A stretch of 64,000 bases of DNA from an uncultured Gemmatimonadales bacterium (GTDB taxonomy: Bacteria > Gemmatimonadota > Gemmatimonadetes > Longimicrobiales > RSA9): assembly GCA_963708135.1 (NCBI GenBank), contig OY970192.1:160001-224000 (forward strand), read 5' to 3'. The notes under the pieces are model-generated. The model saw nothing but the letters and a program-made list of their open reading frames with translations. It was not told where the DNA came from and made no database searches. The translations under genes and the position numbers were made by a program. This document shows positions 42,775-64,000 of the stretch, in pieces. Numbering within the stretch: position 1 is the first letter of the stretch; every line of letters begins with the position of its first letter.

Positions 42775-42801
42775 GGTTAGATAGACATTGTCTATGTAAC
42801 C
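42775..42801. promoter_or_regulatory. 27-bp dyad operator GGTTAgATAGACA-T-TGTCTATgTAACC upstream of padR
   Basis: 12 of 13 positions complementary; ends 4 bp before ATG 42806; lies between divergent genes. Confidence 0.75.
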
Positions 42802-42805
42802 GGAG

Positions 42806-43129
42806 ATGGAGATGCCAGGGGAGCTCGAGCAGCTCGTGCTGCTCGCCTTGATGCGGGTCGGGCCGGCCGCGGATGCCCGCGCGCTCGTCTGCGAGCTGAA
42901 GGAGCGGGCGCGGCGCGAGGTGCTTCTGGCGACGGTGCACCGGACGCTGGCGCGGCTGGAGGAGAAGGGGCTCGTCGCCTCGCGGATGGGGGAACCGACG
43001 GCGCGGCGTGGGGGCCGGCGGCGGCGCCACTACGCGATCACGACGGCGGGACGGGAGGAGGCGGCGTCGGCGCTGGACGCGCTGCGGCGGCTGGCGAGCG
43101 GGCTGGAGCTTGAATGGGACCCCGCATGA
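42806..43129 (+). CDS. PadR family regulator ('GELEQLVLLA' subtype)
   Basis: wHTH: 'LARLEEKGLV', 'RGGRRRRHYAITTAG'; ATGA-coupled to permease. Confidence 0.88.
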   Translation: MEMPGELEQLVLLALMRVGPAADARALVCELKERARREVLLATVHRTLARLEEKGLVASRMGEPTARRGGRRRRHYAITTAGREEAASALDALRRLASGLELEWDPA

Positions 43130-61399: not shown

Positions 61400-61735
61400 G
61401 TGGCCGAACCATCCTCTTCCGACGTCCTCCGCGGCACGCTCGACCTGCTGGTCCTGAAGACGCTGTCGCTCGCGCCGATGCACGGGTGGGGGATCAGCCA
61501 GCGGATCCAGCAGCTCTCGCGCGGGGTGCTGGAGGTGAACCAGGGCTCGCTCTATCCGGCGCTCCAGCGGCTGGAGCATCGGGGCCTGATCGAGAGCGAG
61601 TGGGACACGACGGCGCAGAACCGGCGCGCGAAGTACTACACGCTGACGCGGGCGGGACGGAAGGCGCTGGCGGCGGAAACGGAGAGCTGGCGCGGGTACG
61701 TCGCGGCGGTGGACTGGATCCTGGGGACAACGTGA
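61400..61735 (+). CDS. PadR family regulator (acidobacterial 'LRGTLDLLVL' subtype)
   Basis: GGAGG then GTG; 'HGWGIS', 'VNQGSLYPALQRLE', 'NRRAKYYTLT'. Confidence 0.93.
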   Translation: MAEPSSSDVLRGTLDLLVLKTLSLAPMHGWGISQRIQQLSRGVLEVNQGSLYPALQRLEHRGLIESEWDTTAQNRRAKYYTLTRAGRKALAAETESWRGYVAAVDWILGTT

Positions 61736-61805
61736 GCCGCGCAATGGCGTTCGCGTCCGAAGGGCCTCCCGCAAGCACGGGCCACGCAACCGCAGGCGGT
61801 CCCGG

Positions 61806-64000
61806 GTGAGCGCGCTCAAGGCCCTCCGCGCCCGCCTTCGCTCCGCCTTCTTCCGCCGCGCGGCGGATCAATCCCTCTCCGAGGAGATCCGCTTCCACCT
61901 CGCCATGGAGACGGAGCGGCTCGTGCGCGAAGGGGTGGCGCCGGGCGAGGCGCGGCGGCGGGCGTACGTCGCCTTCGGGGGAGTCGAGCGCTACGTCGAG
62001 GAGGCGCGGGACGGGCGGCGGCTGGGCTGGGTGGAGAGCGTCTGGCGCGACCTGCGCCACGCGCTCCGGCGCCTCGCCCGCTCGCCGGGTTTCGCTCTGG
62101 CGGTGATTCTCTCTCTGGCACTCGGCGTCGGCGCGAACGCGTCCGTTTTCGCGCTGATCCGGGGCGTGCTGCTGCGGCCGCTGCCGTATGCGCATCCGGA
62201 TCGGTTGGTCTCGATCGGCCGGCCGAACGACGGGCGGACGAACTGGGTGTCGTTCCCCGATGACGCCGAGGCGTGGCGCCGCGGCGCCCGAACGCTGGTC
62301 GCGGTGGCGAAGTTCATGGACACGCGCGGCGCAGTGCGAGGCGTGGGGACGGCAGAGTACGCGAAGGGCGCCGCGGCCACCGGCAACCTGCTTGACGTTC
62401 TCGGCGTTCATCCGCTGCTGGGGCGCTGGTTCACATCGGAAGAGGTCCGCGGCGCCGGGCGGTTCGTCGTGTTGAGCCGGGAGCTCTGGGAGCGTCAGCT
62501 TGCCGGCGACCCGCGGGCGATCGGACGATCCATCGAGATCGATGGCGTGCGGCGGACGGTGGTCGGCGTGCTGCCACGGGGGGTCGGCCTGCCACTGGAC
62601 GCGGAGTACTGGATTCCCGGACCGCGGCTGGAAATGGGCGAGGTCGTCGCCCGGGCACGGCCGGGCGCCTCGCTCACCGCGATCCGGCGCGAGCTCACGC
62701 GGCTATCGCCAACGACCTACTCCCGGGCAAAGCTGCATTTGCCAACGGCCATCGTCGTCGCACCGCTGCGCGAGCGGCTGTACGGCTCCCATGGCCCGGC
62801 GCTGCGCTTGCTCCTCGGCGCGGTGCTGCTGCTCTTCCTGATCGCATGCGCGAACATCTCGAGCCTCGCGCTCGCCCGCACCGTGGAGCGCCGCCACGAG
62901 CTGGCGATCCGCGTCAGCCTGGGCGCGAGCCGGCGCGCCCTCGTGCGGGATGTCTTCGCCGAGAACCTGCTGCTGGCGCTGGCGGGCGGTGGCGCGGGAA
63001 TCCTCGTCGCGGTGTGGAGCACGCGGCTGTTCCTCCACCTGAGCCCGGTCTCGATCGCGCGGCTGCCGGGGATCGGCGTCGGGGCGACGAGCATCGGATA
63101 CGCCGCGGGGCTCGCCCTGCTTGCGGCCGGCGTGGTCAGCATCGCGCCCGCGCTCGCGCTCACGCGCGGCTCGCTCAACCCGGCGCTCGGGGGCGAGGCG
63201 GCTCTCGGGACAGGGCCGCAGCGGATGCGCAAGGCGCTCATGGTCGCGCAGCTTGCCGTCGCCTTGCTGCTCCTCACCGGGTGCGGGCTGCTCGTCCGCA
63301 GCATGGAACGGCTGGAGAGCACCGATCTCGGCTTCAACCCGCGCGGGCTGGTCGTCCTTCACCTCGATCTTGCGATCCCACAGTACCGGGATACCGCGGC
63401 GCGCTCGCTCTTCGTGCGCGAGCTGACGGGCGCGGTCGGCGCGCTGCCCGGCGTCCGCTCGATGGCCAACGGGCCCCCGCCGCTCGTCGCGGGCCGGGGG
63501 GACCGTGGCTACTCCGAGGGCTTCGACGCGCTGTTCAGCCGTCGTGACCCGTCGGATCCGACGGCCCGGGGGGGCAACGTCTGGGTCAAGTACGTGGATC
63601 CCGACTACCTGTGGACCTTCCGCATTCGGATCCTCGCCGGCCGCGGGATCCGACCAGGCGACGACGCCGGCGCGCCCCCCGTCGCCCTCCTCAACGCCGC
63701 GGCGGCGAAGCTCTTCTTCCCGGGCGAGTCCGCGGTGGGCCGCACGGTCCCCGGGATCCCGCCGCAGATCCAGGGCGACGGCGGACCCGTCACCGTCGTC
63801 GGCGTGCTCTCGGATGTGCGCCAGCGGGACGTGACGCTCGCGGCGGAGCCGGAGATCTGGATGCCGAGGGCCCAGCACCCCGGCGGCTTCGCGCCGATCG
63901 ACCTCACGATCCGCACGACCGGCGACCCGCGGCCCATCGTGCGATCGATCCGCCGCACGATCGCGCAGCTCGACGCGGACCTCGCCCCGGAGCGGCTGTC
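61806..64000 (+). CDS. ADOP-type duplicated permease with 'EEIRFHL..G....EARR.A...FGG' prefix (3'-truncated by window edge)
   Basis: Open frame from GTG 61806 to window end; 'LALGVGANASVF', 'LLRPLPY', 'IACANI', 'HELAIRVSLGA'. Confidence 0.88.
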   Translation, partial: MSALKALRARLRSAFFRRAADQSLSEEIRFHLAMETERLVREGVAPGEARRRAYVAFGGVERYVEEARDGRRLGWVESVWRDLRHALRRLARSPGFALAVILSLALGVGANASVFALIRGVLLRPLPYAHPDRLVSIGRPNDGRTNWVSFPDDAEAWRRGARTLVAVAKFMDTRGAVRGVGTAEYAKGAAATGNLLDVLGVHPLLGRWFTSEEVRGAGRFVVLSRELWERQLAGDPRAIGRSIEIDGVRRTVVGVLPRGVGLPLDAEYWIPGPRLEMGEVVARARPGASLTAIRRELTRLSPTTYSRAKLHLPTAIVVAPLRERLYGSHGPALRLLLGAVLLLFLIACANISSLALARTVERRHELAIRVSLGASRRALVRDVFAENLLLALAGGGAGILVAVWSTRLFLHLSPVSIARLPGIGVGATSIGYAAGLALLAAGVVSIAPALALTRGSLNPALGGEAALGTGPQRMRKALMVAQLAVALLLLTGCGLLVRSMERLESTDLGFNPRGLVVLHLDLAIPQYRDTAARSLFVRELTGAVGALPGVRSMANGPPPLVAGRGDRGYSEGFDALFSRRDPSDPTARGGNVWVKYVDPDYLWTFRIRILAGRGIRPGDDAGAPPVALLNAAAAKLFFPGESAVGRTVPGIPPQIQGDGGPVTVVGVLSDVRQRDVTLAAEPEIWMPRAQHPGGFAPIDLTIRTTGDPRPIVRSIRRTIAQLDADLAPERL

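Follow-up and report, generated by a model that had tools for sequence, protein, structure and literature searches.

The closest described counterpart of the genes considered here is the HAAS-PadR dyad, which was defined along with the HAAS domain by Ravi et al. (mSystems 2024, PMC11237479). As set out in the main-text sections of that paper, HAAS is a three-helix domain with a kink at a conserved GxP in its third helix; it lies N-terminal to transmembrane (TM) or sensor domains and always beside a standalone gene for a PadR-like winged helix-turn-helix (wHTH) protein, and the authors propose that it signals to PadR through a conformational change, offering an alternative to two-component systems. 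The same sections name fusions of HAAS to FtsX-like TM domains with MacB/PCD domains and note that DUF1700 overlaps HAAS. According to the available text of a second study, the Listeria PadR repressors LstR and LltR control adjacent membrane-protein genes (PMC6624303). Here we analyse positions 42775-64000 of a 64,000-nucleotide window (G000:C1:160001-224000) from the genome of an uncultured Gemmatimonadales bacterium, a single contig of 5.45 Mb with about 73% G+C, in which three padR genes and five genes for duplicated permeases of the ADOP family lie close together. We find strict co-variation between PadR subtype and the N-terminal prefix of the permease, both within this genome and in others of the phylum.

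Like the HAAS-PadR dyad of the main-text sections of PMC11237479, the locus has an N-terminal helical domain on a membrane protein encoded beside a standalone PadR gene, and the mechanism considered below follows the same logic, in which a conformational signal would release or reconfigure the repressor. The initial annotation had taken the PadR-ADOP association to be functionally unexplained, and here it was overtaken by the literature, as the same idea is in print for HAAS-PadR. The prefixes in the window differ from HAAS in being missed by the Pfam HAAS model and in lacking the GxP; their link to it is through profile-profile similarity and shared partners. The Listeria operons resemble those described here in being autoregulated padR operons whose next gene encodes a membrane protein (DUF1700), and differ in their Firmicute host and in their partners, a RodA/FtsW homologue and a DUF1700 protein in single copy each; the available text reports no binding of membrane protein to PadR in Listeria (PMC6624303). 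The NCBIfam models NF038403 (perm_prefix_1), NF038404 (perm_prefix_2), TIGR03434 (ADOP) and TIGR03433 (padR_acidobact) fit most of the genes in the window and give them names, not functions. More distantly, the FtsX/MacB-type transporter BceB of the BceAB-BceRS system signals via a histidine kinase and needs the BceA ATPase, and in BlaR1-BlaI and MecR1-MecI the membrane sensor BlaR1 acts by proteolysis of the BlaI-type repressor. The arrangement proposed here would likewise have a transporter or membrane sensor report to the transcription factor of its own operon, but it includes no kinase, protease domain or adjacent ATPase.

The region consists of three operons of a padR gene with a prefixed ADOP gene and of two plain ADOP genes, an anatomy far beyond what chance would give. 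The first operon, on the plus strand, begins with padR_A (42806..43129), which encodes a PadR-family regulator of 107 aa (Pfam PadR, 35.7 bits) of what we call class 2, recognizable by the motif 'GELEQLVLLA', and continues with ADOP_A (43126..45813; TIGR03434, 789.4 bits), a duplicated FtsX/MacB-PCD permease with a perm_prefix_2-like N-terminus at 43192-43338. The ATG of ADOP_A at 43126 overlaps the stop codon of padR_A (ATGA), with an alternative ATG at 43114. The second operon, on the minus strand, pairs the class-1 regulator gene padR_B (52405..52764; 119 aa, 'LLQGTLDLL'; TIGR03433, 141.2 bits; Pfam PadR, 74.9 bits) with ADOP_B (49567..52253), which carries perm_prefix_1 at 52077-52235 and a frame break near 50043-50049. 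In the third, on the plus strand, the class-1 gene padR_E (61400..61735; 111 aa, 'VLRGTLDLL'; TIGR03433, 145.2 bits), which has a GTG start behind GGAGG and whose product is identical to the called protein P0091, precedes ADOP_E (61806..64000), with perm_prefix_1 at 61836-62006. ADOP_E runs off the window: its full open reading frame (ORF) of 874 aa extends 430 nt further, to the window-equivalent position 64430, and scores 724.5 bits with TIGR03434 in the genome. ADOP_C (54325..56778, +; TIGR03434, 774.2 bits, with the core starting at the first Met) and ADOP_D (57325..59736, +; 800.3 bits) are prefix-less and have no padR of their own; they are sister paralogues on a tree of permease cores (support 100), have near-identical first 25 residues, and are a tandem duplication.

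The curated cut-off of TIGR03434, a model of 803 positions, is 622.3 bits, and it is passed by ADOP_A, ADOP_C and ADOP_D in the window and by ADOP_E in the genome. A Pfam scan returned the duplicated architecture, two PF12704 (MacB_PCD) and two PF02687 (FtsX) domains, for ADOP_A, ADOP_C and ADOP_D, the domain sets of ADOP_B and ADOP_E being cut by the frameshift and by the window end respectively. ADOP_B meets TIGR03434 only as two frames, one covering positions 1-643 (554.5 bits) and the other positions 645-803 (175.6 bits) with the C-terminal FtsX domain, and it is either a pseudogene or the product of a single-base assembly indel in a GC-rich tract. A genuine break would leave padR_B without its partner. 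Among the sequencing runs listed, one of soil-metagenome DNA contained 24% of the sampled words, and none was of RNA. Profile matches thus bore out the gene counts of the initial annotation (five duplicated permeases, three padR genes and zero ABC ATPases in the window), and its coordinates and quoted motifs are correct, the motifs being found in the translations. Its gene positions were right too, but it had passed over the minus-strand orientation of padR_B and ADOP_B, the split frame of ADOP_B, and a second prefix_1 ADOP behind ADOP_E.

Prefix and regulator were then compared across the whole genome with cut-offs of 30 bits for NF038403, 35 for NF038404, 101.8 for TIGR03433 and 27 for Pfam PadR. 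The perm_prefix_1 model passes its cut-off on ADOP_B (45.0-50.8 bits) and ADOP_E (48.8-53.8 bits), among 18 such matches in the genome, and in these proteins the prefix stands directly before TM1 of the permease; ADOP_C and ADOP_D are permease core from the very start. The sole perm_prefix_2 match of the genome, on ADOP_A, is sub-threshold at 26.1-30.5 bits. In a search of 151 genomes, 11 have an NF038404 match over the cut-off, and the PP..A..LL…GDL.EEF motif found in them is retained in ADOP_A. The regulators divide in the same way, padR_B and padR_E passing TIGR03433 and padR_A failing it (27.2 against 101.8 bits), so that the latter is a PadR by Pfam only. The genome has 45 ADOP loci by TIGR03434, 42 intact and three split or frameshifted, and 21 PF03551 PadR matches. 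A same-strand padR gene lies within 1.5 kb upstream of 16 of the 18 prefix_1 ADOPs and of the single prefix_2 ADOP (ADOP_A, with padR_A), and upstream of none of the 26 prefix-less ADOPs; the claim that permeases without a prefix have no padR of their own, made for two genes, therefore holds genome-wide. The two prefix_1 exceptions are the second ADOP of the padR_E operon and the locus L009. In seven of the 17 padR-ADOP pairs the padR stop and the ADOP start overlap by 1-8 nt, a count that depends on heuristically chosen start codons, and in 16 of the 17 padR and prefix overlap or are at most about 150 nt apart. Across 90 homologues of the prefix, E27, A49 and G58 are invariant and H31, G43, F57 and G59 are conserved in at least 90%. 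Elsewhere in the genome, at about 2,980,000-2,981,250 on the minus strand, a PadR gene is followed by one for a non-ADOP protein with another conserved-looking N-terminus, 'LYPAGFRAEYGGEM', which may be a third PadR-linked prefix type.

The same pairing is found in other genomes. NF038403 matched 13 of 41 genomes of the phylum, and 27 loci were fetched from the 12 genomes other than this one. At 25 of these 27 prefix_1 loci a same-strand class-1 (TIGR03433-type) PadR gene ends 0-400 nt upstream, and the 25 regulators score 86-181 bits with a class-1 hidden Markov model (HMM) and 30-54 bits with a class-2 HMM, both built here. Of the other two loci, the first lies behind another ADOP and the second shows a PadR remnant of 14.6 bits. 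NF038404 matched 17 of 151 genomes, at 18 loci, and at 17 of them the gene directly upstream encodes a 'LGELEQLVLLALLRLG'-type ('GELEQ'-type) regulator like padR_A; all 14 of the upstream regulators scanned are Pfam PadR (35.6-56.8 bits). Pairing is kept across 12 other genomes for prefix_1 and 16 for prefix_2, and no prefix was seen with the opposite PadR class in the genomes surveyed. Pairing also extends past permeases: prefix_2 also occurs on at least three short membrane proteins that are not ADOPs (L030, L036, L037) and still lie behind the matching regulator, as do the non-permease HAAS proteins L020 and L021.

On a tree of 61 regulators, the prefix_2-linked PadRs, padR_A included, form a single branch (support 100/100, length 1.58), and the three PadRs that accompany Pfam-HAAS proteins branch from within the set linked to prefix_1. 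Together with the upstream-PadR counts, this separate branch indicates that regulator subtype and prefix type co-vary, as the initial annotation had supposed from three operons, and the tabulation of PadR clade against prefix type that it had proposed returned a pairing that is not random in the genomes covered. By sequence comparison, prefix_2 and its PadR clade appear as a separate dyad, new here. Our literature search did not find this pairing in print; the main-text sections of PMC11237479 do not include it, and supplementary tables S2 and S4 of that paper, which the search did not cover, may list it. Searches on ADOP with PadR, and on 'permease prefix domain', found no paper, and those on the ADOP family or TIGR03434 found no functional study, judged by titles.

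To follow padR, prefix and permease body separately, we compared distances over 41 padR/ADOP pairs. PadR distances correlate with prefix distances (r = 0.62) more than with those of the permease core (r = 0.38), the prefix and core are nearly uncorrelated (r = 0.14), and the partial Mantel correlation of PadR with prefix given the permease core is 0.61, a value reached by none of 2000 permutations. A FastTree phylogeny of the 42 ADOP cores, leaving out the three broken loci, requires 10 changes of prefix status, at least six of them forced by well-supported branches, and it places ADOP_A, with its prefix_2, as sister to a prefix_1 ADOP (support 99). Just past the window, at G000:C1:224480-227158, lies the second prefix_1 ADOP of the padR_E operon (L004), which has no padR of its own. 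The permease bodies of ADOP_E and L004 are about 30-35% identical over most of their length, but their prefixes show two synonymous differences over codons 31-76 and their DNA is 93-96% identical over nt 90-240, a pattern that looks like gene conversion confined to the prefix. PadR and prefix therefore diverge together and independently of the permease body, and the unit of the two moves, and is homogenized, apart from the permease that carries it; both this and the apparent prefix conversion between tandem ADOPs are new here. Such independent movement fits a cognate pair, and tight DNA linkage alone could also give it.

Several lines link prefix_1 to HAAS. On genomic context prefix_1 behaves as HAAS does, standing beside a PadR gene and N-terminal to TM segments at 16 of 18 loci here and 25 of 27 in relatives. 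HAAS (PF22564, gathering cut-off 27 bits) is the sole Pfam family matched by more than one of the 18 prefixes (two, best E = 0.073), its best match on any prefix_1 in the whole genome being 13.1 bits. Conversely, NF038403 gives weak matches (E = 0.12 and 0.19) to each of two genuine HAAS membrane proteins, the prefix of one relative's ADOP behind padR matches Pfam HAAS at 26.6 bits, or 27.0 with in-frame neighbours, and in control genomes of B. subtilis and Deinococcus NF038403 and Pfam HAAS both pass their cut-offs and TIGR03434 does not. In hhalign, a 108-sequence prefix_1 profile and a 17-sequence HAAS profile aligned colinearly over 62 columns with a score of 26.5 (P = 4.6e-4); the reversed control scored 13.2, and none of 30 column shuffles reached 26.5 (maximum 17.1). 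Among named clusters of the ESM Atlas, residues 1-80 come closest to 'HAAS domain-containing protein' (0.90), which we treat as a lead only. On these results we regard prefix_1, with fair though incomplete confidence, as a divergent HAAS domain, and the tie between NCBIfam perm_prefix_1 and HAAS, as far as profiles can establish it, is added here.

A number of results weigh against this assignment. Pfam HAAS gives no row for the ADOP_B and ADOP_E prefixes even at E ≤ 10, and at that threshold a Pfam scan of the three window prefixes returned chance-level rows only. The hhalign probability for prefix_1 and HAAS is only 33%, an earlier alignment against three HAAS sequences covered one helix only (probability 3.9%), and the GxP position of HAAS reads F-G-G-V/x in prefix_1, with the G conserved and the P not. 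Structure prediction did not help: AlphaFold2 modelled residues 1-100 of ADOP_E, from 18 sequences, as a plain helical hairpin of two long helices and one short (pLDDT 71.8), uninformative on fold family, and Foldseek found no match for this model in the PDB at E ≤ 0.001. A sequence search of the PDB with the 18-prefix profile reached E = 0.062 at best, with unrelated helical proteins. For prefix_2 the likeness to HAAS is partial and weak, covering the first half only (hhalign P = 0.0029 over 29 columns), its likeness to prefix_1 is nil (P = 0.31), and its ESM Atlas value of 0.79 is at chance level.

Contact between prefix and regulator was modelled with two PadR_E chains and residues 1-90 of ADOP_E, from alignments built here (65 and 88 rows). 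Three runs scored 0.58, 0.57 and 0.58, the best of three controls scored 0.02, and the tool's verdict was 'weak support'. In its benchmark 116 of 157 solved complexes and two of 215 mismatched pairs attained the support mark; only 18 of the 157 solved complexes passed with scores of at most 0.60, along with both of the mismatches. Agreement between runs covers at least 66% of contacts, with a partner pLDDT of at least 61.

The explanation that we consider best, and hold to be probable though well short of assured, is that these operons encode signalling dyads in which the prefix of the ADOP docks its cognate PadR. Each PadR would most likely be a dimeric autorepressor acting on a private dyad at its own promoter, and the gene behind it encodes what would be both sensor and output, a duplicated FtsX/MacB-type permease with no ATPase nearby. 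The first 80 or so residues of this permease are predicted to form a helical cytoplasmic domain just before TM1, and it is this domain that would dock the PadR. A conformational change in the periplasmic MacB-PCD domains could then pass through TM1 so that the repressor is held or released and transcription of the operon is tuned, making the system a one-step analogue of transporter-coupled 'flux sensing'. In parallel, padR_A and ADOP_A would make up a dyad of their own, whose PadR comes from a separate clade and whose prefix is of another type, perm_prefix_2. As a mechanism, sensing and docking is reasonable and the best available, having already been published as a computational, unproven proposal; that PadR binds the prefix, which way the signal runs and what the ligand might be we infer from comparative and predicted evidence. 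Other observations speak against it: the prefix_1 ADOP at L009 in this genome has no padR nearby, and the prefix_2 ADOP at L034 in another genome has no regulator nearby; the score of the predicted complex falls in the weak band of the tool, which returned no interface; one of the three dyads may be dead, since ADOP_B is frameshifted; PadR and prefix distances are near saturation (mean p-distance 0.66-0.67); and our literature search turned up no experimental test of HAAS-PadR binding.

A rival account is ordinary ligand-responsive autorepression, in which PadR would sense a small molecule directly and induce a neighbouring export permease, and the prefix would serve the permease itself, for example in assembly, recruitment of a distant ATPase or gating, and make no contact with PadR. 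PadR and LmrR sense small molecules directly, and PadR-family repressors are common beside transporter genes, as in LmrR-LmrCD and PadR-padC; LmrR binds drugs via a Trp in its C-terminal helix, and the Trp in the C-terminal helix of PadR (W90 of our alignment) is invariant in 16 paralogues. The prefix stands where the fused ATPase is found in MacB, and MacB/LolD-like ATPases are encoded elsewhere in the genome. Against this account, the prefix goes with the presence of a padR (16 of 18 against 0 of 26), and the 26 prefix-less ADOPs manage without one; both prefix types also occur on non-permeases behind the matching regulator, and it is PadR, rather than the permease body, that the prefix follows. 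We regard this alternative as unlikely. Co-divergence of padR and prefix could instead come from physical linkage alone, because the two are within about 150 nt of each other in most pairs, which counts against reading it as a sign of contact: the DNA from padR into the start of the permease gene would be copied or converted as one block, with the prefix a conserved leader of unrelated or structural role. The near-identical prefix DNA of ADOP_E and L004 is evidence that tract-wise conversion happens. What linkage does not lead one to expect is conservation of residues at the protein level across 90 homologues, pairing kept in so many other genomes for both prefix types, and a complex prediction far above its controls, and we find this account more improbable still than autorepression by ligand, and prefer docking of the prefix to its cognate PadR over both.

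The initial annotation had pointed to an inverted repeat before each padR gene, with an N3 spacer as a trait of class 1. The candidate operator of padR_A is a 15-bp palindrome, ATAGACA-T-TGTCTAT (42781..42795), 11 nt upstream of the ATG, and exceeds shuffles of the same region (p = 0.015; p = 0.01 for extended 13-nt arms). Upstream of padR_B, in the minus-strand reading, an N3 dyad, GTAGA-TTA-TCTAC (52901..52913), lies near a stronger N5 dyad, TGGGTGTAG-GCCGT-CTACACCCA (52872..52894; p = 0.005). The padR_E dyad, TGTCGG-AAG-CCGACA (61257-61271), extended to the half-site CCGACAGGA (61257..61275), lies 143 nt upstream of the gene and is not above chance (p = 0.39 against shuffles of its region). 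All three dyads exist, but N3 spacing does not hold up as a class trait.

Across the 17 padR upstream regions of this genome, seven have a dyad at p ≤ 0.05. The longest perfect dyad was not enriched in padR upstream regions compared with 600 random genomic 180-mers (mean 6.9 vs 6.5), so a composition-weighted score was needed. Significant dyads were found in 19 of 41 class-1 promoters, with spacers of 1-3 in six and 8-19 in 13; ten of the 19 have a TTGA/TTGC box directly against the left arm, so that the arms bracket the presumed -10 region. Class-2 promoters have a significant dyad in six of 17, with short spacers (1-5) in four of the six, about 20-45 nt upstream of the GELEQ motif. By eye, a GACA-T-TGTC core is common to padR_A and the class-2 padR of L023 and weaker in L032 and L040 (all three in other genomes), promoters of the regulators most closely related to padR_E (L045, L049, and L007 and L018 of G000) share the CGACAGGA half-site of its dyad, and orthologous promoters keep their own half-sites, such as CTTCTACA…TGTAGAAG in L016, L054, L048 and L058 from four genomes. 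Taken together, the survey suggests operators that are private to each paralogue, the N3 spacer of one class not being the rule. The promoter-side intergenic regions also contain GC-rich short tandem repeats, at 52936-52985 (GATGCGG, 7.1 copies), 54211-54311 (GCGTCCC/TCCCGCA, 14 copies), 61275-61313 (CGGGGCG, 5.6 copies) and 61347-61372 (CGCACA, 4.3 copies), and comparable arrays lie upstream of padR at L006 in this genome and at L048, L059 and L067 in others.

Orphan status was assessed with the ABC ATPase model PF00005, none of whose 57 matches in the genome (E ≤ 1e-10) lies in the window; the nearest is at position 267407, 43 kb beyond the window end. Only three of the 45 ADOP loci of this genome have a match within 5 kb. 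The count of LolD/MacB ATPases that the initial annotation had called for gave nine MacB/LolD-like enzymes, all elsewhere in the genome, that are closest to the one ADOP-adjacent ATPase (133-238 bits, 37-52% identity), and each of these lies at most 2.7 kb from an FtsX-model match. The profile counts thus describe a genome with about 45 ADOPs and about nine MacB/LolD-like ATPases. As a candidate role for the prefix, ATPase docking was considered and dropped, as the prefix is absent from the 26 prefix-less ADOPs and present on non-permease proteins.

These results bear on the old puzzle of what dozens of ATPase-less 'orphan' FtsX/MacB-type permeases do in soil bacteria, some of which may be sensors as much as transporters. 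Where HAAS-PadR has been proposed as an alternative to two-component signalling, this genome holds 16 prefix_1 pairs and one prefix_2 pair in one cell, and it brings natural controls: 26 prefix-less paralogues, two tandem permeases with one prefix sequence, and one prefixed permease without a regulator. Cognate versus non-cognate binding, operator specificity and prefix swapping are therefore directly testable. To the published proposal we add the co-occurrence counts, the tie of perm_prefix_1 to HAAS, the prefix_2 dyad, module shuffling with prefix conversion, and a weakly supportive complex prediction. A broader reading, which taken as a whole we put forward only tentatively, is that in this phylum, and probably among Acidobacteriota as well, ATPase-less duplicated FtsX-type permeases would make up an extensive family of insulated one-step transmembrane receptors. 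In this genome about 17 padR-plus-prefix units with private operators would have been moved repeatedly onto different permease bodies, and the sequence of the prefix would set which PadR a permease addresses. Where one padR precedes tandem permeases, gene conversion restricted to the prefix would hold them to a common 'channel'. Prefix_2 and the PadR clade linked to it would form another dyad of this logic, as yet undescribed, which either evolved separately or has diverged strongly.

The remaining genes of the region lie between and beside these operons. The padR_A operon is flanked by genes for a peptidase and a TPR protein, both on the minus strand. The peptidase (45839-48091) belongs to family S9, has PD40 propeller repeats, and is Dpp5-like or lasso-peptide-isopeptidase-like by NCBIfam, below cut-offs. 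The TPR protein (40251-42731) resembles a 'peptide modification system cyclase' at 189 bits against a cut-off of 400. A YCII-domain ORF (60330-61193, +) lies between ADOP_D and padR_E. Between padR_B and ADOP_C, a Phd/PIN pair (53235-53911, +) consists of a Phd/YefM antitoxin gene (53235-53525, +) and a PIN-domain toxin gene (53522-53911, +) that overlap by 4 nt.

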